NCBI GenBank assembly: GCA_030610995.1
Contig: JAUWQO010000001.1
Span: forward strand, 11,947 to 75,946
Direction: 5' to 3'
Source of the DNA: Desulfobacterales bacterium
GTDB taxonomy: Bacteria > Desulfobacterota > Desulfobacteria > Desulfobacterales > ETH-SRB1
Length of the DNA stretch: 64,000 nucleotides
Made by a program: the position numbers and the translations under genes
Notes under the pieces: model-generated
Database searches by the model: none
What the model saw: only the letters and a program-made list of their open reading frames with translations
Told to the model about the DNA's origin: nothing
Shown here: piece by piece, positions 11,438 through 61,561 of the stretch
How the letters are laid out: every line of letters begins with the position of its first letter
Position numbering within the stretch: the stretch's first letter is position 1

Positions 11438-12305
11438 GTTTTCACCCAGCCTTGTTCAGGGAAGGGAAGCATTGTCCCCTCGGCTTGTAGGAATGACCTT
11501 TTTATACTCTTGTTTAGCAAGGGGCATGCCAAACTTTCGTAGTTGGACTAACCCCTTGATTCTTTAAGAATTGTCATCACAGGAGGATCGTACGGGCAGG
11601 ATCTTTTTGAAGGGTTTTTCCTACAGGGGAAGATGGGTAAAGCTTAATTGATTGATTGATAGGCTGAACTACTTATAAGTTCTACATTCTTAGAGTGTAG
11701 GTTATTTCATACGCTTTACTTCGGAAATTTACAAACTCATTATGAGGTTAACCTGAGGCAACGGACAATTAGGGGTGACTATGGTTATCAAATCTTGAAT
11801 TGTGAATTACACTTTTCTTTATTCACTATTCAAGAAAAGGTCCAATTTTTGGACAAGGGCTTGCGGGACATACATTAGTTTATAAGTTGACGTGGTAATT
11901 AAACTGAAGACGCAGTTGACTATGTTGAATAACTTTCCATGTAGAATAGGAGGGGAATAATTGGGGATGTCCGTAAAATTTCAACATTTGGGGAAGAGGG
12001 CGGGATAGTTATTACTACGATGGAACAAGAGGTGTACGTTAAAGGGGTATGTTAATTGACTTTATTAGATTTATTCTGCATTATGCATTATAACCTCAAA
12101 TACTTTAGAAATAGTGATTGGGTCAAAAGAGTCTATCCACCGGATATTATAAACAATAAAGACAAACTGTATAAAAGACCGGAATATAATCCTTTTAAAT
12201 AAAGGCATGCTCTTGTAGATTGATAACCGCTATATTTGTATGACAAGCAAGTCTATGGAATAGACGTTATGCTTTAAATCAATTAATTGGAAAGGAGAAA
12301 TAGTT

Positions 12306-13568: not shown

Positions 13569-15392
13569 TTACCGTCCTCTCATCACATACCTTTTATGTG
13601 CGGACAGGATACTTTTCCTGATGCGTATCGATTTTGGCGTGACCTCGACCATCTCGTCGCTTTTTATGAAATTTATTGCGCGCTCAAGGGTCACAGGTCT
13701 TACAGGGGCCAGGATAATATTGTCATCCTTTCCTGATGCGCGCATATTAGAAAGCTTTTTTTCCTTGCACGCGTTAACAGTAATATCATTTTGCCGGTTG
13801 TGTTCCCCTATAACTATGCCTTCGTAAACAGGATTACCCGGAACAATAAAGATCTGTCCCCTTGGTTCAAGATTAAAAAGAGCATATGCCACTGCCTTTC
13901 CTTCTCTGTCCGCGACTATGGAGCCGGTAACCCTTGATTTGAAATCTCCCCTGTATTCGTCGTAACCTGCAAAGATAGAATTTATTATCCCCGTGCCCTT
14001 AGTGTCGGTCAAAAACTCATCCCTGTAACCTATAAGCGCTCTGGAAGGAATATTAAATTCTATCCTCACCCTTCCTTTTCCATCATTAACAAGATTGATC
14101 AGTTTCCCTTTTTTTATGGAAAGTTTTTCCGTAACAATTCCTAAGAAATGTTCGTCACAATCGATAAAGAGCTGTTCTGTTGGTTCAAGTTTCTTGTTGT
14201 TTTCATATTTATAGATTACTTCAGGACGGCCTACGCAAAGTTCAAAACCTTCCCTCCTCATGGTTTCAATCAGGATAGCCATCTGGAATTCGCCTCTTCC
14301 CTTGACAAGAAAGCTTTCCTTCTCCTCTGTTTCTTCAACTCTTATAGCTACATTTCTTAAGGTTTCCTTTACAAGCCGTTCGTATATTTTGCTTGATTGA
14401 ACATATTTTCCTTCTTTTCCGGCAAAAGGAGAATTGTTTATAGTAAACTTCATCGATACGGTGGGTTCATCGACTTTTATCCTTTTTAAGGATTTTGGAT
14501 TTTCTTTTGTACAGATTGTATCTCCGATCCTGACATTTTCTATTCCTGAAAGTATAACAATATCACCGGCTCCTGCTGTTTTAACCTCTTTAAGATCCAG
14601 GCCGTCATATACTTTTAGATTTGAGATTTTAAGTGGTACAGGCTCGTTGTTTTCATTAATACAGACAAGATTGTCGTTGAATTTTACATGTCCGTTAGAC
14701 ATCCTGCCTATGGCAAGCCTTCCCAGATAGTCAGAATAATCGAGGTCTGATACCAGCATCTGGAAAGGTTCTTCCGGATCATAAAAAGGGGCCGGGATAT
14801 TATCCAATATCGTATCAAAAAGCAAATTTAGATTTTCCTCCTTATCATCTAATGATTTTTTAACAATTCCATCCCGTCCTATGGCATAGAGCAAAGGGAA
14901 CTCAAGCTGGTTGTCCGTGGCGTCAAGATCTATAAAGAGATCGTATATTTCGTTTAGAACTTCATTGGGGCGGGCGTCATTCCGATCGATCTTGTTAATT
15001 ACCACTATAATTGTAAGCCCGGCTTTTAGCGCCTTTTTTAATACAAAACGGGTTTGGGGCAGGGGGCCTTCTGAAGCATCTACCAAAAGGAGCGCGCCAT
15101 TTGTCATGGAAAGCGCTCTTTCTACCTCACCGCCAAAATCAGCATGGCCAGGGGTATCTATAATATTTATCTTTACCCCTTTCCATTTTACGGAACAGTT
15201 TTTTGCAGCAATGGTAATCCCCCTTTCACGCTCCAGATCCATCCTGTCCATTATTCTTTCATCTACTTCCTGCCCGGTCCTGAACAACCCGCTTTGTCTT
15301 AACATACCATCAACAAGCGTGGTTTTTCCATGATCAACATGGGATATGATTGCGATATTTCTTATTTTTTCATTTTTTACAAAATTAACCAT
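13569..15392 (-). CDS. typA: translational GTPase TypA/BipA
   Basis: 'IRNIAIISHVDHGKTTLVD', 'DTPGHADF' and 'NKIDR', followed by EF-G-like domains. Start set to the ATG at 15392, which has AGGAA upstream. Confidence 0.95.
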   Translation of the reverse strand: MVNFVKNEKIRNIAIISHVDHGKTTLVDGMLRQSGLFRTGQEVDERIMDRMDLERERGITIAAKNCSVKWKGVKINIIDTPGHADFGGEVERALSMTNGALLLVDASEGPLPQTRFVLKKALKAGLTIIVVINKIDRNDARPNEVLNEIYDLFIDLDATDNQLEFPLLYAIGRDGIVKKSLDDKEENLNLLFDTILDNIPAPFYDPEEPFQMLVSDLDYSDYLGRLAIGRMSNGHVKFNDNLVCINENNEPVPLKISNLKVYDGLDLKEVKTAGAGDIVILSGIENVRIGDTICTKENPKSLKRIKVDEPTVSMKFTINNSPFAGKEGKYVQSSKIYERLVKETLRNVAIRVEETEEKESFLVKGRGEFQMAILIETMRREGFELCVGRPEVIYKYENNKKLEPTEQLFIDCDEHFLGIVTEKLSIKKGKLINLVNDGKGRVRIEFNIPSRALIGYRDEFLTDTKGTGIINSIFAGYDEYRGDFKSRVTGSIVADREGKAVAYALFNLEPRGQIFIVPGNPVYEGIVIGEHNRQNDITVNACKEKKLSNMRASGKDDNIILAPVRPVTLERAINFIKSDEMVEVTPKSIRIRKSILSAHKRYVMRGR

Positions 15393-15542
15393 TAATTTGT
15401 TCCTATTGTTAAATAGTGTCACGAAAACCCTATTAACCATGATTAAATAAGGCTTTGCACTATATTTATACACATGAAGTTAGTACCTGTTAGGTGTTAG
15501 CATTTAGCTGTTAAATGAAGACCTTTGCATAACTCCAGTATT

Positions 15543-15623
15543 GTCATTGCGAGCGAAGCGAAGCAATCTCATAACACATTGATAAGCCACGAGATTGCCG
15601 CGTCGCTTTGCTCCTCGCAATGA
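15543..15623. repeat. 'gtcattgcgag...ctcgcaatgac' hairpin (family B)
   Basis: 'gtcattgcgagcgaagcgaagcaatctc' faces 'gagattgccgcgtcgctttgctcctcgcaatgac'. Related copies at 36184-36264 and 26892-26976. Nested within the outer inverted repeat 'gaagacctttgcataac'/'gttatgcaaaggtctc'. Confidence 0.9.
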
Positions 15624-15749
15624 CCAAAATTGGGCAAAAGTTGGGGTTATGCAAAGGTCTCAAATGAAAAATATAGCGTTTAGAGCTAATTGCTCAAAAT
15701 CTTCGTTCAGAATAAAAGCTGCAAATGCTTATTTTATCAAAGTGTTAGA

Positions 15750-15911
15750 TATACCTCGAAAGGCCACAACTTGCGATTTTTCGCTGGCCCTGAACATCAA
15801 TAACTGTGTTGCTCAGGCTTGAAATAGCTTGCTATTTCGCGTCTTCGCGCCTTGCTCTTGATGCTCATTGCTCACCGAAAAAAAGCGCAATTTGTAACCT
15901 TCCGAGGTATA
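15750..15911. repeat. MITE-like element, copy 2 (inverted relative to 13343-13503)
   Basis: Hand alignment to the reverse complement of copy 1 shows a handful of mismatches and one indel. Confidence 0.9.
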
Positions 15912-16109
15912 GTTTTCGTTCAGGCGCTAAATATAGTATCATTATTTTAGATTGATCAACTGTAGCGAATTATTTATAATATAATATTAAAAAACTCAAA
16001 GTCAAAGAGCAAAGAATACCATACTGTTTAATATCAATAGGGACTTGCGGGATATTAATTGATAAGTTGACGTATTAAACTGAAGAACGTTGGCTATGTT
16101 GAATAATTG

Positions 16110-16266
16110 GTAAGCGTTCACGGAACGTTGAAATTGGAAATTAGAAACTGGAAATTAGGCATTCATGCTTTTGTACTGTTCTTCCCAATTTCCAATTTCA
16201 AATTTCTAATTTAATCTCTCCCAAATTTCTAATTTCTATTTTCAAGTTTCAAGCCGTGAACGGCTA
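16110..16266. repeat. family C element ('GTARSCGTTCACGG' termini, 'gaaattg/caatttc' word arms), copy 1
   Basis: About 90% identical to the reverse complement of 21133-21290. Flanked by 'aataattg' at 16102-16109 and at 16267-16274. Confidence 0.9.
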
Positions 16267-16314
16267 CAATAATTGTAAGGATAGGAAACATCGTTGATGG
16301 AGAATTTTAGGCCT

Positions 16315-18039
16315 TTAAGCGCCTGGAGTTTGGACCTTCTTTGTTTTCATTTTTTGAATTGCGATTTCTTGCATACGGAATTTCTGTAGCTTGCCGGTCA
16401 CCGTCATGGGAAACTCTTCCACAAACCAGATATAGCGCGGGATTTTGAAGTGTGCCAGGTTATCCCTGCAGAAGTCACGGATTTCCTGCTCAGAGGCAGT
16501 CTTACCGGTGTGTAGTTTGATCCAGGCCACAACCTCTTCGCCGTAGTACTCGTCCGGCATGCCAAAGACTGCCACCTCGGCAACCTTAGGATGACCGTAG
16601 ATAAACTCCTCGATTTCGCGTGGGTATATATTCTGGCCCCCACGGATGATCATTTCTTTCAATCTTCCCGTGATGCGCACATATCCATCGGCATCCATGG
16701 TTCCCAGGTCACCGGAATGAAGCCAGCCGTTTCCATTGATGGTTGCCCTTGTAGCCTCCAGGTCCCCATAGTAGCCCTTCATAATGTGGTGGCCTCGAAA
16801 ACAGATCTCCCCTGTTTGTCCAAGGGGCACGGTTGCGCCAGTGTTAATCTCTACTACCTTTGCTTCCTGATGGGGGAGGCTCTTGCCAACGGTCATGATA
16901 CGGCGTTCCATACTATCATCTCGTAACGTTAGGTGAGTCAAGGGAGATGCCTCGGTCTCACCGTAGCCAATGAGGATCTTCCGGCAGTGCATCTCTTCCA
17001 TCACCCGTTTCATGAGGGTTGGAGGACAAGGCGCACCTGCCATGATTCCCGTGCGCAAGGTAGAGATATTAATGTTATTAAATTCCGGGTGCTCCAGCTC
17101 AGCAATAAACATAGTAGGCACGCCGTGAATGGCTGTGCATTTCTCCGCTTCGATCGCTTCCAAGACCTCCAGGGCATCAAAATGCTCACAAGCAATAACG
17201 ACACAGGCTCCGTGAGAGAGACAGAGCAGATTAGCCAGCACCGCGCCAAAACAGTGATAAAATGGGACGGGCACACAAAGCCTGTCCTTTTCTGTAAAGT
17301 GCATGGATAGTCCGCTAAAATAGGCATTGTTGAGAATGTTGTGATGGGTCAGGACCACTGCTTTGGGGTGGCCGGTGGTTCCTGAGGTATATTGGATGTT
17401 AATTGGATCATCGATGTCAAGGGATGCAGTGATCCTGTCCACCTCTTTCAGGGGAACGGATTCTGCCAGTTCAAGGATATCCATCCAGGTGTTGAAGCCC
17501 GGATAGAAACGGCGGCTCTCCATGGGTTCAGCGGGGTGGTATAGGACAACCTGCTTTAAGAAGGGCAGATCCTGGTTTTTTATCTCTCTGCCTTTGCTGT
17601 CTTTTAGTTCCGGGATCAGTTCCACCAGCATGGAAACATAATCACTGGTCCGGAACGAAGGAATGACAAAGAGCCCTTGAACCTCGGAACGTCGCAGAGC
17701 ATAAGACAGCTCTTTCAATCGGTAGGCAGGGTTAATGGTTGCCAGAATGACCCCTATACGCGCGGTGGCCATTTGGAGAATGAGCCATTCCAGATTATTG
17801 GTCGACCAGATGCCGATTCGGTCACCTTTACCGAAACCTGAGGCAACCAGGCCCCTGGCTAAGAGATCCACCGACTCTGAGAGAGCAGTATAAGTGAGCC
17901 GTTTTTTCTGGGTAATTGAAACCACTGCCTCCCTGTCCGGAAACCGTTTTACGACCTGGATAAAGTGCTCGGGAATGGTTAGACCAAGAAGTGGAACCGT
18001 CCCGCCGGAATGGAAGTAACTTTTCTTGATGGTCTCCAT
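16315..18039 (-). CDS. AMP-dependent acyl-CoA synthetase/ligase
   Basis: AMP-binding motif 'YTSGTTGHPKAV', plus 'GYGETE' and 'GDLG..D.DGY..I.GR.K'. Start set to the ATG at 18039, which has AGGAGG upstream. Confidence 0.9.
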   Translation of the reverse strand: METIKKSYFHSGGTVPLLGLTIPEHFIQVVKRFPDREAVVSITQKKRLTYTALSESVDLLARGLVASGFGKGDRIGIWSTNNLEWLILQMATARIGVILATINPAYRLKELSYALRRSEVQGLFVIPSFRTSDYVSMLVELIPELKDSKGREIKNQDLPFLKQVVLYHPAEPMESRRFYPGFNTWMDILELAESVPLKEVDRITASLDIDDPINIQYTSGTTGHPKAVVLTHHNILNNAYFSGLSMHFTEKDRLCVPVPFYHCFGAVLANLLCLSHGACVVIACEHFDALEVLEAIEAEKCTAIHGVPTMFIAELEHPEFNNINISTLRTGIMAGAPCPPTLMKRVMEEMHCRKILIGYGETEASPLTHLTLRDDSMERRIMTVGKSLPHQEAKVVEINTGATVPLGQTGEICFRGHHIMKGYYGDLEATRATINGNGWLHSGDLGTMDADGYVRITGRLKEMIIRGGQNIYPREIEEFIYGHPKVAEVAVFGMPDEYYGEEVVAWIKLHTGKTASEQEIRDFCRDNLAHFKIPRYIWFVEEFPMTVTGKLQKFRMQEIAIQKMKTKKVQTPGA

Positions 18040-18415
18040 ATTGCCTCCTGTTTGATTATCAATCAAAGAACATGGGATATAAAACCTGGCCCTCAGGATT
18101 CTTTACTCCCATAAAATTTTATATAATGCAATATTCATGAGACCTTTGAACCGCAAAGGCGAGCGCATTCCCCGCAACTTACTGCGGGGAGCTTCTCATC
18201 TGTTTAGAGGCAGATGGCTTGGGCATGCCCAGTTTGATAGAAGTCTCTTGATATTATCCCTGATTTGATTTAAGAGATTGAATACAATAAATACAACGCG
18301 TAGATTTAAGTGAAAATTTCTAATTTTATAAAGTTAATTATGCTTTTATGCAAGCGACAGGAATGGTAACTGATCATACGGCAGATTGTTTTCGATATAA
18401 GGAAATCTATCTGAC

Positions 18416-21132: not shown

Positions 21133-21290
21133 GTAGCCGTTCACGGCTTGAAACTTGAAATTGGAAAGTAGAAATTTGGGAGAGATTAAATTAGAAACTT
21201 GAAATTGGAAATTGGGAAGAACAGTACAAAAGCATGAAGGCCAAGTTTCCAATTTCCAATTTCCAATTTCAACGTTCTGTGAACGGTTAC
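21133..21290. repeat. family C element, copy 2
   Basis: 'gtagccgttcacggcttgaaacttgaaattgg...ccaatttcaacgttctgtgaacggttac'. The right terminus contains the recJ stop codon. Confidence 0.9.
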
Positions 21291-23026
21291 TGTCCTTTAA
21301 TATCTTCAATAACAATTTGAGCTGTTTTTTTTTCGTTCCAGTGGTTCCAGCGCAGTCTGAACGCAATTTGATCAAAGTTGTCCCGCAGGTTTTTGCTTGT
21401 ATCTACATTAAAATGGATGGCATTAAAGGAGTTGCCTGTTCCGCCTGCGGCGGACTGCTGTAAAAGCATGCGTCTGTGGTTTTTGCCAACGATTTTTGAA
21501 TCCATTACCCTGACATTTTTGGCTATAAAGAGAGGTTCATGGTTGCCTGTGCCAAACGGCTTTAAGGTTTCAAGTTCATTGATCAGCGTATCTGAAATGT
21601 CGTCAAAATTGAGTTCAAAATCGATGGAAATTGTCTGCACGAAATCATCGTGCGTGGTCATCTGTTGAACAGTGTTTTCAAAGTTTTTTTTAAATACATC
21701 CATATTTTCGGCCTTTATTTTAAGACCTGCCGCCATTGAATGGCCGCCAAATGCTTCAAGATGGTCAGAGCATGACATAAGTCCATTATAAATATTAAAT
21801 CCTGGTATGCTTCTGGCAGATCCTTTGCCGACTCCTTCCTTTATTGCGATAAGGACCACAGGCCGAAAGTATTTTTTTACCATCCTGGATGCAACTATAC
21901 CCAGAATTCCTTCATGCCACATGTTATCCAGTTCATTATCTGATATGACCAGCGAACTGTTTTTGAGCACGCGTTGATTGTTTTTTAGATATTCGAAAAT
22001 ATCCTCTATTATCTTTTGTTCAATGTTATGCCTTTTAATGTTCAAGTTGTTAAGTGATTGGGCAAGTTGTCTCGCAGTTTTAAGGTTGTTTGTCGTCATG
22101 AGCTCAACAGCGGCTGAAGCATGCTCGATCCTGCCCGCAGCATTTAACCTGGGCGCCAGCCTGAAGGCTACATCTTCTGTGTCCACAGAATTATTTTTTA
22201 TTCCACTGAATTCCATCAACGTTTTTATGCCGCATCGCTTGCCTGCATTTATTATTTCAAGTCCTGTTTTTACCAATATACGGTTTTCATCGACAAGAGG
22301 GACCATGTCGGCCACGGTTCCAAGAGCTACAAGATCGCAAAGGCTTTTCAGATTTGGTTCAGGCCTGTTTTGCCAGAAATGACTGTCGCGCAGGTGTTTT
22401 CGGAGGCAGATCAGAAGATAGAAAGCCACTCCGACACCGGCAAGGCTGTGAAAATCAGATGAGCAATCATGACGCTTTGGATTTAATACGGCAACGGCAT
22501 GGGATGGTTTGTCGGATATTTCGTGGTGATCTGTAATTATTACATCAATTTCGGAACTCGATGCTGTTTTTACAGCATTGTTGCTGCTTGAGCCGCAGTC
22601 AACGGTGATTATCAGGTTTATTTTGTTTGGTATTGCGTAATCTGTTATATGTTTTGTGTGAAGGCCGTATCCTTCTTTGGTTCTGTGGGGGATATAATAT
22701 GAAACATCTGCTCCTGTATAATGTAAAAACTCGAAAAGGATTGTTGTTGCGGTGATTCCATCAACATCGTAGTCGCCAAAGATTAATATTTTTTCATGAT
22801 CTGTTATGGCTGAATAAATACGCTTTACAGCGGCATCCATATCTTTCATCGAGCATGGAGGCCGCATGTTGTTAAGAGAAGGCCTCAGGAAGCGCAGAGC
22901 ATTATCTTTTGAAATAATTTTACGATTTGCCAGAACAGTTGCTATAACACGATTGCATTGTAACTCCCTGCGGATTTTTTCGACTACATCAATATCCGGT
23001 TGTAAAAGTTGCCACTGTTTTTTCAT
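21287..23026 (-). CDS. recJ: single-stranded-DNA-specific exonuclease RecJ
   Basis: 579 aa. DHH motifs 'IFGDYDVDGITA', 'ITVDCG' and 'DHH', plus DHHA1 'GGHSMAAG'. Confidence 0.95.
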   Translation of the reverse strand: MKKQWQLLQPDIDVVEKIRRELQCNRVIATVLANRKIISKDNALRFLRPSLNNMRPPCSMKDMDAAVKRIYSAITDHEKILIFGDYDVDGITATTILFEFLHYTGADVSYYIPHRTKEGYGLHTKHITDYAIPNKINLIITVDCGSSSNNAVKTASSSEIDVIITDHHEISDKPSHAVAVLNPKRHDCSSDFHSLAGVGVAFYLLICLRKHLRDSHFWQNRPEPNLKSLCDLVALGTVADMVPLVDENRILVKTGLEIINAGKRCGIKTLMEFSGIKNNSVDTEDVAFRLAPRLNAAGRIEHASAAVELMTTNNLKTARQLAQSLNNLNIKRHNIEQKIIEDIFEYLKNNQRVLKNSSLVISDNELDNMWHEGILGIVASRMVKKYFRPVVLIAIKEGVGKGSARSIPGFNIYNGLMSCSDHLEAFGGHSMAAGLKIKAENMDVFKKNFENTVQQMTTHDDFVQTISIDFELNFDDISDTLINELETLKPFGTGNHEPLFIAKNVRVMDSKIVGKNHRRMLLQQSAAGGTGNSFNAIHFNVDTSKNLRDNFDQIAFRLRWNHWNEKKTAQIVIEDIKGQ

Positions 23027-36346: not shown

Positions 36347-37102
36347 ATGTATACAGTAATTGCAGTTGTTATACTTGTAGCCCTTTTTCTGTCAGCAGCC
36401 ATACGAATATTAAATGAGTATGAACGCGCGGTTATATTCAGGCTTGGCAGGGTTATAAAGGCAAAAGGGCCCGGCCTGATCATACTTATTCCCATTGTAG
36501 ATAAAATGGTAAAGGTAAGTATGCGTCTTGTGGCCATGGATGTGGACCCGCAGGATGTTATAACCAGGGATAATGTTTCGGTAAAGGTTAATGCTGTAAT
36601 CTATTTCAGGGTCATCGATTCGATAAAGGCTATAGTTGAGGTTGAGCAATACAACTATGCTATGTCTCAACTCGCCCAGACAACCCTGAGAAGTGTGTGC
36701 GGCCAGGCAGAGTTAGATGAGCTTTTGTCTGCAAGGGAAAAGATTAATGAGCAGCTTCAAGTAATACTGGATACACATACAGATCCGTGGGGATTAAAGG
36801 TTGCAACCGTGGAACTGAAGCATATTGATTTGCCCCAGGAGATGCAACGCTCGATGGCCAAGCAGGCTGAGGCGGAAAGGGAACGTCGCGCCAAGGTAAT
36901 TAATGCAGAAGGGGAATTTCAGGCTGCGACAAAGCTGGCTGAAGCATCGAAAATAATTGAAAATCACCCTACGGCCTTGCAACTCAGGTATCTCCAGACA
37001 ATGCGCGAGATGTCGGCAGAGCAGAATACAACAACAATTTTTCCGTTTCCAATTGAACTTTTCAAGCCATTTATGAAACTTCTTGATAAAGAAGGCAAAT
37101 AA
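36347..37102 (+). CDS. SPFH/band-7 (stomatin-like) protein
   Basis: Start set to 'MYTVIAVV'. '[16 protein letters not shown]' and the SPFH domain. Paired with nfeD. Confidence 0.9.
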
Positions 37103-37110
37103 ATATGTTT

Positions 37111-37364
37111 ACCGTTCACGGGTTCAGAGGTTCAAGGTTCAAAGGTTCAGGATAAAGCTATTAGCCATTAGCTCTTAGCTGAAGGTGTTAACTGTTTGAT
37201 TTTTTAAGCTAACGCGCAGCGCAGGCGCTTGCGCCGCGTGAGGCTAATTGCTAAAAGCTAACTGCTAACAATCTTCGATTTAAAAATATTGGTGCATAGC
37301 AGTTGCCCGGCGCTCCAAGAAAAATAACCCTGAACCTCTGAACCGTGAACCTGTGAACGGTTAC
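37111..37364. repeat. family C variant ('accgttcacgg...ctgtgaacggt' termini; 'ggttca' and 'gctaa' word arms; GC palindrome core)
   Basis: Flanked by 'taaatatgttt' at 37100-37110 and at 37365-37375. Confidence 0.85.
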
Positions 37365-37496
37365 TAAATATGTTTAGCCTGTACAAGGCCATCAACTATT
37401 GACATAATAAAATAAAATAGTTAAAAGAACTATTTTTCTTGTCATGATTAACGGTTTTTCAAAACCATCAAGGATAGAAAAGGAGATTTGCTGGAT

Positions 37497-37826: not shown

Positions 37827-38057
37827 TTTAGCTTTATTTGTAATAATTCAGCCACAAAGGCACTAAGATTATAATATAATTTTTAATATACAGTATATGC
37901 CGTATCTACAACTTTTTTCTTCTCTTTTTTGATAACGCTTTAAAATTAAAGTTTTTTTGTGCCTTTGTGACTTAGTGGCTGAACTCTTACCTTTATTTCA
38001 AAAAAATATTGTTTCACGCAAAGGCGCAAAGACGCTAAGTTTTAAAAAGTGATATTT

Positions 38058-42112: not shown

Positions 42113-42388
42113 TGTAGCAACGTAAGTTCTCAATAAGCTCTGGTACCAAACGTCATTCCCGTGAAAACGGGAATCCAGGCCCTAATAATTATAACACCGG
42201 ACTCAATGCCATTAACTTAAAGAGTAGATGTCGCTGTGGGAGCGGCTTTTAGCCGCGATTGTAGCTTTGGAGCGCACATTTTTTCGTGGCTGAAAGCCAG
42301 CCCCACAAACAAAATTAGCTTAAGTTAATGGCATTGACACCGGACTTTCAAACTCACCAGAACCTATTGAGAAGTTACGTAGCGACTC
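42113..42388. repeat. three-layer nested palindromic element
   Basis: Outer arms 'gtagcaacgtaagttctcaataagctctggt' and 'accagaacctattgagaagttacgtagcgac'. Middle arms 'acaccggactcaatgccattaacttaa' and 'cttaagttaatggcattgacaccggac'. Inner arms 'ctgtgggagcggcttttagccgc' and 'gtggctgaaagccagccccacaaa'. Confidence 0.9.
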
Positions 42389-49952: not shown

Positions 49953-51212
49953 ATGCATCATTTTAATTATCATAACAATGAAATGTATTGCGAAGATGTT
50001 CCGATACAGATAATTGCTCAAAAGGTCGGCACCCCTTTTTATTTATACAGCCATGCTACCTTAAAACGCCATTTCTCTGCCTTTAATGATGCCTTTGACG
50101 GCATGGAAAGGCTGATATGTTTCTCTGCAAAGGCAAATACAAATTTAGCTGTGTTGAAACTGTTCGCAAACCTTGGAGGCGGCCTTGATATTGTTTCACG
50201 AGGAGAACTTTTCCGGGGATTAAAGGCCGGGATTTCGCCTGACAAAATTGTTTATTCAGGTGTTGGAAAGCAGGTCGATGAGATCGACTACGCCCTTTAT
50301 AAAAATATATTGATGTTCAATGTCGAGTCCTTTGAGGAGCTTGAACTTATAAACCAGAGAGCTGGCTGGTATAAATTAAAAGCGCCTGTAGCTATTAGGG
50401 TAAATCCCGACGTTGATCCTAAAACCCATCCGTATATTTCAACCGGCCTTAAAAAAAATAAATTTGGTGTGGATTACAAGACGGCAATTAAAGCATACAA
50501 AATTGCAAACAGTCTAAAAAACATAAAAATAATCGGCATTGACTGCCATATCGGATCGCAGATTACCGAAACAGGGCCATTTGAGGATGCTCTCAAGAGC
50601 ATCAAGATGCTGATATATGAATTAAAAGATCTCGGCATAGAGATCAGATATGTTGACATGGGTGGAGGGCTGGGAATAACCTATCACGATGAATCACCTC
50701 CTCAGCCAAGTGAATATGCCGGATCCATAATTAAGCTGCTTAAAGGAATGCAGATTAAACTGATACTGGAACCAGGCAGGGTTATTGTCGGAAATGCTGG
50801 AATACTGGTTACCAAGGTTCTTTATAAAAAATCGGATGATGCAAAAGAGTTTGTTATAGTTGATGCAGGCATGAACGATCTGATACGTCCGGCATTGTAT
50901 AGAGCTTTTCATAATATAGAGCCGGTTGTTAAATCTGAAGGCAAATCGATAATTGCAGACATCGTAGGGCCAATTTGCGAAACAGGTGATTTTCTGGCTC
51001 TTGACCGTAAAATTGCCGACGTCAAAAACGGGGATTTTCTTGCGGTCATGAGCGCTGGAGCATACGGATTTACTATGTCATCAAATTACTGTTCCAGGCT
51101 GCGTGTACCCGAAGTAATGGTAAAGGATGACCTGTTTTATGTTGTAAGGGCACGGCAGGAATACGCAGATCTTATTGCAGGCGAGTCGATACCGCCGTTT
51201 TTGGAAAATTAA
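49953..51212 (+). CDS. lysA: diaminopimelate decarboxylase
   Basis: 419 aa. 'FSAKAN' PLP lysine context, 'GGGLGI', 'EPGR', 'CETGD'. Confidence 0.96.
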   Translation: MHHFNYHNNEMYCEDVPIQIIAQKVGTPFYLYSHATLKRHFSAFNDAFDGMERLICFSAKANTNLAVLKLFANLGGGLDIVSRGELFRGLKAGISPDKIVYSGVGKQVDEIDYALYKNILMFNVESFEELELINQRAGWYKLKAPVAIRVNPDVDPKTHPYISTGLKKNKFGVDYKTAIKAYKIANSLKNIKIIGIDCHIGSQITETGPFEDALKSIKMLIYELKDLGIEIRYVDMGGGLGITYHDESPPQPSEYAGSIIKLLKGMQIKLILEPGRVIVGNAGILVTKVLYKKSDDAKEFVIVDAGMNDLIRPALYRAFHNIEPVVKSEGKSIIADIVGPICETGDFLALDRKIADVKNGDFLAVMSAGAYGFTMSSNYCSRLRVPEVMVKDDLFYVVRARQEYADLIAGESIPPFLEN

Positions 51213-51329
51213 TCGTAACCATTCAGCCACAGATTCACCCCAGTACGATCATCCTGACCTACGGGGCAGGCACAGATGAACGCAGATAGCTTTAAATATA
51301 AAGAACCCACAAAACATTAATAATTATAT

Positions 51330-51443
51330 GTAGCCGTTCACGGCTTGAAACTTGAAATTGGAAAGTAGAAATTGGGAAGAACAGTATAAAAGCATGAAGC
51401 CCAAATTTCCAATTTCTAATTTCAATGTTCCGTAAACGGTTAC
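51330..51443. repeat. family C element, copy 3 (shorter)
   Basis: 'gtagccgttcacggcttgaaacttgaaattggaaagtagaaattgggaagaacagtataaaagcatgaag...ccgtaaacggttac'. Nested in the outer inverted repeat 'aaccattcagccacagat'/'atctgtggctgaatagtt'. Confidence 0.9.
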
Positions 51444-51496
51444 AAAATATCAGTGATGATCAGCGTATATCTGTGGCTGAATAGTTACAATTAATT

Positions 51497-61330: not shown

Positions 61331-61561
61331 GGAGTCGGGGCTTTCGGGGGGTTTTCGTACATTAGTTTATAAGTTACTGTTAAGCTTTTAACGAGTAATT
61401 GTGGCGTATAACCAATTGCTCTCCGCGTTTAACCGCTAAACTGACTGCGGGTTGCGAAATCTTCAGCTTTTACCCTAATTCGCTTTGACTTATTCCCAAC
61501 TCACTCGTTGCCCAGAAACAGAGCAAACTGCGAGCCGCAACCTGAAGCCTCCCGAAGCCCC
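61331..61561. repeat. about 230-bp segment bounded by an inverted repeat
   Basis: 'ggagtcggggctttcgggggg' faces 'cctcccgaagcccc'. Contains 'tacattagtttataagtt', which is also at 11871-11888. Confidence 0.6.

Follow-up and report, generated by a model that had tools for sequence, protein, structure and literature searches.

The 158-bp repeat at positions 16110-16267 of a 64-kb window (the whole 64,000-nucleotide stretch of a Desulfobacterales contig analysed here) belongs to a dispersed family, which we call family C, whose copies transpose with an 8-bp duplication of the target. We put at roughly 85% the probability that this repeat is a non-autonomous DNA transposon, or MITE (for miniature inverted-repeat transposable element), that it is a gutted copy of a mobile cassette and that it was moved in trans. 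In the mechanism that we propose, a transposase made elsewhere would bind both 14-bp inverted termini (GTARSCGTTCACGG) and join these to target DNA whose strands are cut 8 bp apart, A+T-rich sites being preferred, and repair of the stagger would yield the 8-bp direct repeat. The ancestral cassette comprises these termini, inverted GAAATTG-type heptamer arrays, a ribosome-binding site and a single 117-codon four-helix-bundle gene (23S_rRNA_IVP), of which ~330 bp are deleted in the 158-bp MITE. None of the elements that we examined encodes a transposase, which argues for mobilisation in trans.

Target-site duplications across family C

The element at 16110-16267 lies on the minus strand, in the orientation of the parent cassette, with the end that bears GTAGCC and the ribosome-binding site at 16267. 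Its terminal inverted repeat GTAAGCGTTCACGG (16110-16123, plus strand) opens with the IS66-family motif GTAAGCG (16110-16116) and has a near-perfect partner, GTAGCCGTTCACGG, on the minus strand at 16254-16267. The 8-bp target-site duplication AATAATTG stands directly outside the element at 16102-16109 and recurs as an exact match at 16268-16275. An earlier note on this DNA had recognised the left end and the exact repeat, and both stand; the right end that it gave (16266, for a length of 157 bp) and its position for the right-hand repeat copy (16267-16274) are replaced by those given here. With three or fewer mismatches allowed, the window contains 10 matches to the terminus where chance would give 2.0, a count that no shuffle out of 100 attained.

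Copies elsewhere were sought in one genome per species with an exact 22-mer from the family C end (GTAGCCGTTCACGGCTTGAAAC), a probe that picks copies with one intact end and may enrich young copies; at least 107 eight-kb stretches were recovered. The related sequences are metagenome bins throughout, and their taxon labels are those of the depositors. Among the matches listed, all derive from metagenome-assembled genomes (MAGs) of marine seep and sediment bacteria, ~40 genomes with unrelated sequence contexts, labelled Desulfobacterales, Desulfobacteraceae, Thermodesulfobacteriota, Seep-SRB2, Eth-SRB1 and Candidatus Desulfaltia, and a few short contigs are binned under other labels. Viral contigs gave no exact match to the 22-mer. 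An origin in Beggiatoaceae or cyanobacteria, an idea raised by the heptamer repeats, was rejected: no TAACTGA repeats were found, and the genome matches listed were sulfate-reducer MAGs.

Termini that face inward were paired in these loci and in the window, which yielded 79 elements, 66-461 bp long. The 14-bp termini are conserved over the 79 paired copies, with GTAAGCG as the commonest end and GTAGCCG or GTAACCG opposite. An exact 8-bp direct repeat flanks 28 of the 79, where 0.36 were expected from permuting right flanks among elements, and nine further elements have a repeat that matches at 7 of 8 positions (0.71 expected from the same permutation). Exact repeats of other lengths were limited to one of 7 bp and one of 4 bp; there were none of 9 or 10 bp, which sets the length of the duplication at 8 bp. 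The duplicated 8-mers comprise 26 distinct sequences, are 78% A+T against a background of 58%, and have almost exclusively A or T at positions 3-5. Such varied, A+T-rich duplications argue for staggered-cut transposition into A+T-rich targets rather than site-specific insertion. The claim of the earlier note that family C transposes with an 8-bp target duplication is therefore upheld by the table of flanks that it had called for, by the duplications around parent cassettes and by empty alleles at two other insertions (both described below).

Two sister copies to which the earlier note had pointed are real. The copy at 21133-21290 (plus strand, 158 bp) is inverted relative to the 16110 copy and 93% identical to it (the note gave ~90%), and the copy at 51330-51443 (plus strand, 114 bp) is an internal-deletion variant nested in a larger element at 51215-51488. 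Neither retains a target duplication, their flanks matching at 0/8 and 2/8 positions, respectively. A lack of duplications at other copies, which the note had named as a result that would speak against transposition, is seen at both of these sisters and not across the family.

Two further observations concern particular groups of copies. Eight family C copies of 88-107 bp (L011, L013, L022, L034, L040, L056, L071 and L102) have no duplication, and their flanks are near-identical across contigs (AAAYTATT ... AAATCTTG); either they are nested in another repeat and were amplified together with it, or orthologous loci have been sampled from several bins. At L010 (7330-7433) and L030 (6120-6224), which are orthologous to the window at ~23.9 kb, half of a family C element adjoins the start codon of a gene, and the ATG falls where, on the other strand, the cassette has its ...AAAAGCATGAAGGCC stop region. 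The 5' end or the translation start of the host gene may here come from the element.

Empty alleles in related strains

For comparison between strains, near-identical contigs from public seep and sediment metagenomes were placed on the window; such contigs show the presence of an allele, not its frequency. Two MITEs of this kind in the window proved polymorphic. The first, at 37108-37364 (257 bp), has the same 14-bp termini as family C around an unrelated interior, and an exact duplication, TAAATATG, at 37100-37107 and 37365-37372. X2 (depth 79) and X3 (depth 766) contigs join 37099 directly to 37365 and so skip 265 nucleotides, the 257 of the element plus 8. The second, at 51215-51488 (274 bp), is the outer element around the 51330 copy; its termini, GTAACCATTCAGCCACAGAT and GTAACTATTCAGCCACAGAT, are related to the family C terminus but different from it, and its 8-bp duplication reads AATTAATC at 51207-51214 and AATTAATT at 51489-51496. 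In X3 (depth 640) and X4 (depth 245) the main strain runs from 51206 straight into 51489, a skip of 282 (274 + 8). Both empty alleles keep exactly one copy of the 8-mer. In the empty allele at 51207 the two adjoining genes are separated by TAA-TT-ATG only, so that the insertion of 51215-51488 split a tightly coupled gene pair. Both polymorphic insertions hit a stop codon exactly (37100-37102 and 51210-51212), with the TAA inside the duplicated 8-mer.

The check for strain polymorphism proposed in the earlier note was thus positive for these two elements and negative for 16110-16267 and 21133-21290; no empty allele was seen for the latter, which is present in all related strains examined. Because every readable strain is filled at 16110 and 21133, these insertions are older or fixed, and this status agrees with the missing duplication at 21133.

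Family C is very abundant in marine-seep sulfate-reducing bacteria. Words from the element reach depths of 10^4 to 10^5 in seep metagenomes, against 30-1000 on its flanks, an excess of hundreds to thousands of times; the depth sums all copies in all community members and gives no per-genome copy number. The family sequence is also abundant in metatranscriptome contigs, where contig depth is a poor measure of expression and carry-over of DNA is possible.

Descent from a gene-bearing cassette

The longest sampled elements, L101 (459 bp) and L007 (461 bp), carry an open reading frame (ORF), which is intact in L101 and encodes 117 aa. Its product matches Pfam PF05635 (23S_rRNA_IVP, 23S ribosomal RNA (rRNA)-intervening sequence protein; E 5e-23) and NCBIfam TIGR02436 (four helix bundle protein; E 3e-23). 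The cassette as a whole measures 452-460 bp and combines family C termini, an 8-bp duplication and this single 117-aa gene. Searching by tblastn with the protein revealed graded internal deletions in the shorter elements (e.g. residues 1-32 + 70-117, 1-29 + 87-116 and 1-14 + 95-117), and nested internal deletions connect the cassette to MITEs of 107-288 bp. Alignment with an intact cassette of 452 bp (L116, 165-616) shows that the copies in the window retain positions 1-57, which hold the terminus, a GAAATTG-type arm, the ribosome-binding site GGGAGAG and a dead start (ATT for ATG), and positions 389-452, which hold the last five codons (AACAGTACAAAAGCA), the stop TGA, the other arm and the terminus; ~330 bp of coding sequence are lost. 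Judged by these sequence comparisons, the family C MITE is an internal-deletion derivative of the 452-460-bp cassette.

Perfect 8-bp duplications surround intact cassettes in several independent contexts, namely L101 (AAGAAACT), L116/L124 (GATAATCT), L127 (GAAAATCA), L132 (CGTGAGAC), L134 (ACAATGAC), L136 (ATTGAAAC) and L182 (AAAATAAT), as well as a more divergent cassette, L122, with termini GTAAGTGTTCACAA and GTAATCGTTAACAG (duplication AAAAAACT). A passenger gene, inverted repeats and a duplication, the features by which mobile insertion cassettes are recognised, occur together in L101, L116, L122, L127, L132, L134, L136 and L182. The ratio of nonsynonymous to synonymous substitution rates (dN/dS) of the cargo gene had a median of 0.095 over 117 pairs, at a dS of ~1. 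Such strong purifying selection indicates that the cargo is a working gene and not debris.

The four-helix-bundle homologues (L124-L203, 80 metagenome loci from many environments, 45-97% identity) nearly all lie between inverted arrays of 6-7-nt repeats, whose unit varies by locus (GAAATTG, GAAACTT, GATACTT, GACGTT, CATTGGT) and is mirrored downstream. When the upstream and downstream arrays were compared locus by locus, most loci shared GAAAYT-type units. The GTARSCGTTCACGG termini occur only with homologues at ~80% identity or above; the copies from Bacteroidales (L111) and Marinimicrobia (L113), at 83-85% identity, have the arms without the termini. A search around the distant homologues for any inverted-repeat pair together with an exact 8-bp duplication found both only in the clade at 87% identity or above. 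The plasmid collection contained one distant four-helix-bundle match (Pseudanabaena) and no cassette. Homologues of the cargo at 79-93% identity were also present in other bins (P0015, P0051, P0052, P0086, P0093 and P0115), some on contigs of 17-95 kb, under the names Planctomycetes, Bacteroidales, Saprospiraceae, Marinimicrobia and Verrucomicrobiota. The spread of cargo homologues with dS ~1 across bins may reflect strong conservation, horizontal spread or both.

Identity of the mobilising enzyme

We lean towards an IS66-family DDE transposase acting in trans as the mover, because the terminus starts with GTAAGCG and the duplication is 8 bp long. The published signature of the IS66 family is an inverted repeat of 20-30 bp that starts with GTAAGCG, together with 8-bp direct repeats (PMC11946415), and the IS66 inverted repeat has been given as GTAAGCGTCCGG... 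/ GTAAGCGTCCGGCGAACTCACCTT (PMC12888890). The ends of ISPre3 in plasmid pCAR1.3 (GTAAGCGTCCGC... and GTAAGCGTACGC...) agree with this signature.

Several results weigh against the reading developed so far. Of the three copies of family C in the window, two retain no duplication, and no empty allele was found at 16110 in eight metagenomes, all strains that could be read across the junction being filled. A tblastn search with IS66 TnpA/B/C (ISPre3) gave no match below E 1e-3, either in the genome loci (739 kb) and the window or in the metagenome loci (462 kb), and no transposase gene of any family with these termini was found in the 1.25 Mb searched. Pairs of termini 0.5-6 kb apart with a matching duplication were also absent, except for a 680-bp cassette with a nested insert. 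The likeness to IS66 extends over only 7-8 terminal bases of one end, the other end being GTAGCC or GTAACC; only 14 bp of the inverted repeat are perfect, as against the 20-30 bp usual for IS66, and beyond this core the two ends share only a shifted TTGAAA motif.

The autonomous, transposase-encoding element with the same termini that the earlier note had envisaged was therefore not recovered from the 1.25 Mb of loci. Multi-copy insertion sequences usually break short-read assemblies and are often missing from metagenome contigs, which makes a negative search for a transposase in such assemblies weak. Two candidates were examined and rejected. In L075, a pair of termini 3191 bp apart encloses a phosphoenolpyruvate (PEP)-synthase-like gene and has no duplication, and we therefore regard them as two separate ends. 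In L020, a solo terminus stands beside a PIN/antitoxin pair and an ORF of 244 aa; a second end is missing, and no similarity to a transposase was seen.

Elements of the same kind might instead be moved by another transposase that duplicates 8 bp (e.g. ISL3, IS1595, IS256, IS6 or ISAs1) or by an undescribed enzyme, with the likeness to IS66 a coincidence; we consider this rather unlikely. The lack of an IS66 gene in the 1.25 Mb, the agreement of just 7-8 terminal bases and the differing second terminus (GTAGCC/GTAACC) would all fit such a mover, but a GTAAGCG tip combined with an 8-bp duplication is precisely the IS66 signature (PMC11946415). Three terminus families in the window all start with GTAA and all have 8-bp duplications, and the frequent loss of insertion sequences from metagenome contigs weakens the negative search on which this alternative draws. 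To our knowledge, the usual termini of other families that duplicate 8 bp do not start with GTAA.

The related sequence at 11.9 kb

The insertion at 16110 struck a host motif (GGGACTTGCGGGA..TGATAAGTTGACGT..TTAAACTGAAGA..CTATGTTGAATAATTG; 16041-16109, plus strand) that has a paralogous copy at 11857-11932 (plus strand). The earlier note had read 11860-11950 as an empty version, without interruption, of the site that the element interrupts at 16041-16290, which we now think quite improbable. To the left of the insertion the relationship is well above chance: 16041-16106 aligns with 11857-11932 at 77.6% identity over 76 nt (66-76 nt on the left side), with a local score of 74 against a null mean of 14. 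This score was reached by 2 of 2000 random windows (the higher at 126), which probably overlap the two copies themselves. The alignment stops at ...GTTGAATAA, within the duplicated 8-mer, both with the element in place and after its removal.

Extension of the similarity past the insertion point, on which the note had staked its argument beforehand, was not significant: the best match on the right covers 8 of 9 nt and is equalled by ~10% of random 24-mers from the window (p≈0.1). A weak match beyond the insertion point (TGTAGAATAGGA / TGTAAGGATAGGA) and small insertions in the 16-kb copy of related strains that make it closer to the 11.9-kb copy would favour an empty counterpart. However, the 'target' 8-mer of the paralogue is AATAACTT, a match at 6 of 8 positions, and the two loci, which lie in different contexts, are related as paralogous motifs rather than as alleles. 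Because no significant similarity continues beyond the insertion point, the sequence at 11.9 kb is a paralogue of the motif and not a demonstrable empty site. That the element sits in a copy of a dispersed sequence holds for the left side, and the continuation on the right does not. In place of the argument from the 11.9-kb and 16.1-kb copies, the case for transposition is best built on the duplication statistics of the whole family and on the true empty alleles.

Five copies of the host motif were found, all partial; an uninterrupted continuation would read ...GAATAATTGTAAGGATAGGA. This dispersed motif of 40-70 nt (GGGCTTKCGGGAC..ACATTAGTTTATAAGTTGACGTGGTAATT) occurs in the window at 16041-16109, 11857-11932 and 61340-61380 and is conserved in two other genomes (L027 7279-7317 and L067 1174-1236). 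It contains no convincing promoter, and promoter and terminator scans were uninformative.

Genomic setting and predicted structure

The element at 16110-16267 is intergenic, in an 840-bp spacer (15474-16314). On one side of this spacer an acyl-CoA synthetase gene (16315-18066, minus strand) ends, and on the other typA/bipA (13569-15473, minus strand) begins. It is predicted to fold into a long hairpin (-46.4 kcal/mol with z -5.8 as RNA; z -5.1 as DNA), and such a hairpin could possibly affect termination or RNA processing. An Rfam scan of the window returned two tRNAs only, with no match to the 158-bp element or the host motif.

That the repeat is not mobile at all but a conserved structured element (a terminator, a ribonuclease III (RNase III) site or a palindrome of the repetitive extragenic type) spread by recombination or duplication, with the AATAATTG pair arising by chance in A+T-rich DNA, would suit the long hairpin (z about -5 to -6), the intergenic position, the abundance of the family in RNA libraries and the two window copies without duplications, but is effectively refuted by exact 8-bp duplications at ~75 times expectation with 26 different site sequences, by empty alleles with exactly one copy of the 8-mer and by copies in unrelated contexts of ~40 genomes. 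A secondary, co-opted RNA function of the repeat is possible.

Most of the spacer 15474-16314 consists of stacked mobile repeats. At 15752-15909 lies an unrelated third MITE with termini TACCTCGRAAGG...CCTTCCGAGGTA and TA flanks on both sides, an IS630/mariner-type signature. It is strain-polymorphic, as X2 and X3 contigs join 15748 to 15909 and skip 160 nucleotides (158 + 2). A fourth repeat family, at ~15519-15660, has termini AGACCTTTGCATAACYCC, flanks TTAAATGA/TCAAATGA and an internal palindrome, GTCATTGCGAGCGAAGCGAAGCAATCTC...GAGATTGCCGCGTCGCTTTGCTCCTCGCAATGAC; its word depth in metagenomes reaches 10^4 to 10^5.

Other GTAA-type elements in the window

The window holds at least seven GTAA-type elements, of which those at 37108-37364, 37840-37990, 42122-42378 and 51215-51488, all with 8-bp duplications, are absent from the earlier note. 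The MITE at 37840-37990 has termini GTAATAATTCAGCCAC / GTAAGAGTTCAGCCAC and an exact duplication, CTTTATTT, at 37832-37839 and 37991-37998. A MITE-like element at 42122-42378 has termini GTAAGTTCTCAATA / GTAACTTCTCAATA and a duplication that matches at 7 of 8 positions (GTAGCAAC / GTAGCGAC). Besides family C, the termini that start with GTAA and are accompanied by 8-bp duplications fall into a GTAAYNNTTCAGCCAC family (37840-37990 and 51215-51488) and a GTAAGTTCTCAATA family (42122-42378).

Some of these elements touch neighbouring genes or other repeats. The stop codon of recJ (gene 21287-23026, minus strand; stop 21287-21289) lies inside the terminus GTAACC of the family C copy at 21133-21290, so that this element adjoins or replaces the original 3' end of the gene, and the carbonic anhydrase gene on the other flank ends 8 bp short of the element. 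A 30-bp G+C-rich palindrome, CGCRCAGCGCAGGCGCTTGCGCCGCGTGA, is solitary at 2063-2092 and has a second copy at 37203-37232, where inverted AGCTAAC-type repeats enclose it within the 37108 MITE. It resembles a tiny dispersed element that has landed in a MITE.

Implications

As a MITE, family C is an ordinary, new family of a known type, and its added interest is in its descent from a cassette and its IS66-like ends. It documents a MITE superfamily with such ends and explains a large share of the intergenic repeats of this genome. Recent insertions in this genome coincide exactly with stop codons, and one of them parts two tightly coupled genes (51206/51489); the family is also a practical marker of strain-level variation in uncultured partners of methane- and alkane-oxidising archaea.

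The cassette shows a conserved gene of the rRNA-intervening-sequence family, under purifying selection, riding a transposon-type element. A mobile origin of intervening sequences thereby becomes testable through GTAA-type termini, 8-bp duplications and the protein on heptamer arms. We suggest very tentatively, and think it on balance unlikely, that a mobile cassette of the DDE-transposon type is what one clade of '23S rRNA intervening-sequence protein' genes (Avd-like, four-helix-bundle) itself represents. If this were true, cassette mobility would explain in concrete terms how rRNA intervening sequences with an ORF, and multi-copy TIGR02436 genes, arose and came to be spread patchily, and the nearly universal inverted heptamer arrays would be a functional part of the module, e.g. 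a binding or processing site for the protein or RNase III.

Comparison with known systems

Family C has the hallmarks of a MITE: it is short (under ~600 bp; 158 bp here, 66-461 bp in the family), it has no transposase ORF, the sole ORF of its long forms being the 117-aa four-helix-bundle protein, its 14-bp GTARSCGTTCACGG termini are accompanied by a fixed 8-bp duplication at independent sites, and precise empty sites exist for 37108-37364 and 51215-51488. Bacterial MITEs and mobile insertion cassettes include Correia/NEMIS, the cyanobacterial Nezha and MIC231 of Bacillus cereus. Family C resembles them in small size, inverted termini, fixed duplication, lack of a transposase and high copy number, and also in its intergenic position, its nesting in other MITEs and its descent by internal deletion from a longer element. 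It differs in that the parent is a cassette with a four-helix-bundle gene only, not a transposase-deleted insertion sequence, and in that the family, as sampled, is restricted to uncultured sulfate reducers of marine sediment and a few more organisms known from metagenomes.

With the IS66 family (IS66, IS679, ISPre3, ISPa75), family C shares a terminus that begins GTAAGCGT, the 8-bp duplication and varied A+T-rich sites. Unlike these, it has no tnpA, tnpB or tnpC, measures 107-460 bp against ~2.5 kb for IS66, has a perfect repeat of 14 bp with a GTAGCC/GTAACC second end, and has no cognate autonomous copy in the 1.25 Mb. Membership of IS66 is not claimable without a transposase, and the resemblance is one of terminus and duplication. 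The literature that we searched attributes no MITE to IS66 and places no four-helix-bundle genes in cassettes with inverted termini.

The hupL MITE of Thiomargarita nelsonii, which has a 10-bp direct repeat, a 19-bp inverted repeat and no parent in ISfinder (PMC4853749), is likewise an abundant MITE in an uncultured seep bacterium. It differs in repeat lengths and organism, and no sequence relation is established. The cargo protein belongs to the same fold family as Avd, the accessory protein of diversity-generating retroelements. Both are small basic four-helix-bundle proteins encoded within a selfish element; no reverse transcriptase or template/variable repeats lie near the cargo gene, and the link is one of family membership only.

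A further parallel lies in the 23S rRNA intervening sequences with an S23p/23S_rRNA_IVP ORF (Leptospira, Coxiella), whose origin is described as unresolved and which have been suggested, in an idea ~30 years old, to be relics of mobile elements (PMC4990558). Intervening sequences occupy helix 9, 25 or 45 of 23S rRNA and are cut out of the RNA by RNase III; no insertion into rRNA was found here, the copies examined being intergenic and no locus containing rRNA motifs. Like these intervening sequences, the parent cassette is ~430-450 nt long, has complementary ends that form a long stem and has heptamer repeats beside an ORF of the S23p/PF05635 protein family. The 158-bp derivative differs in having lost the S23p/PF05635 ORF, and both the cassette and the family C copies have DDE-type inverted termini and 8-bp duplications.

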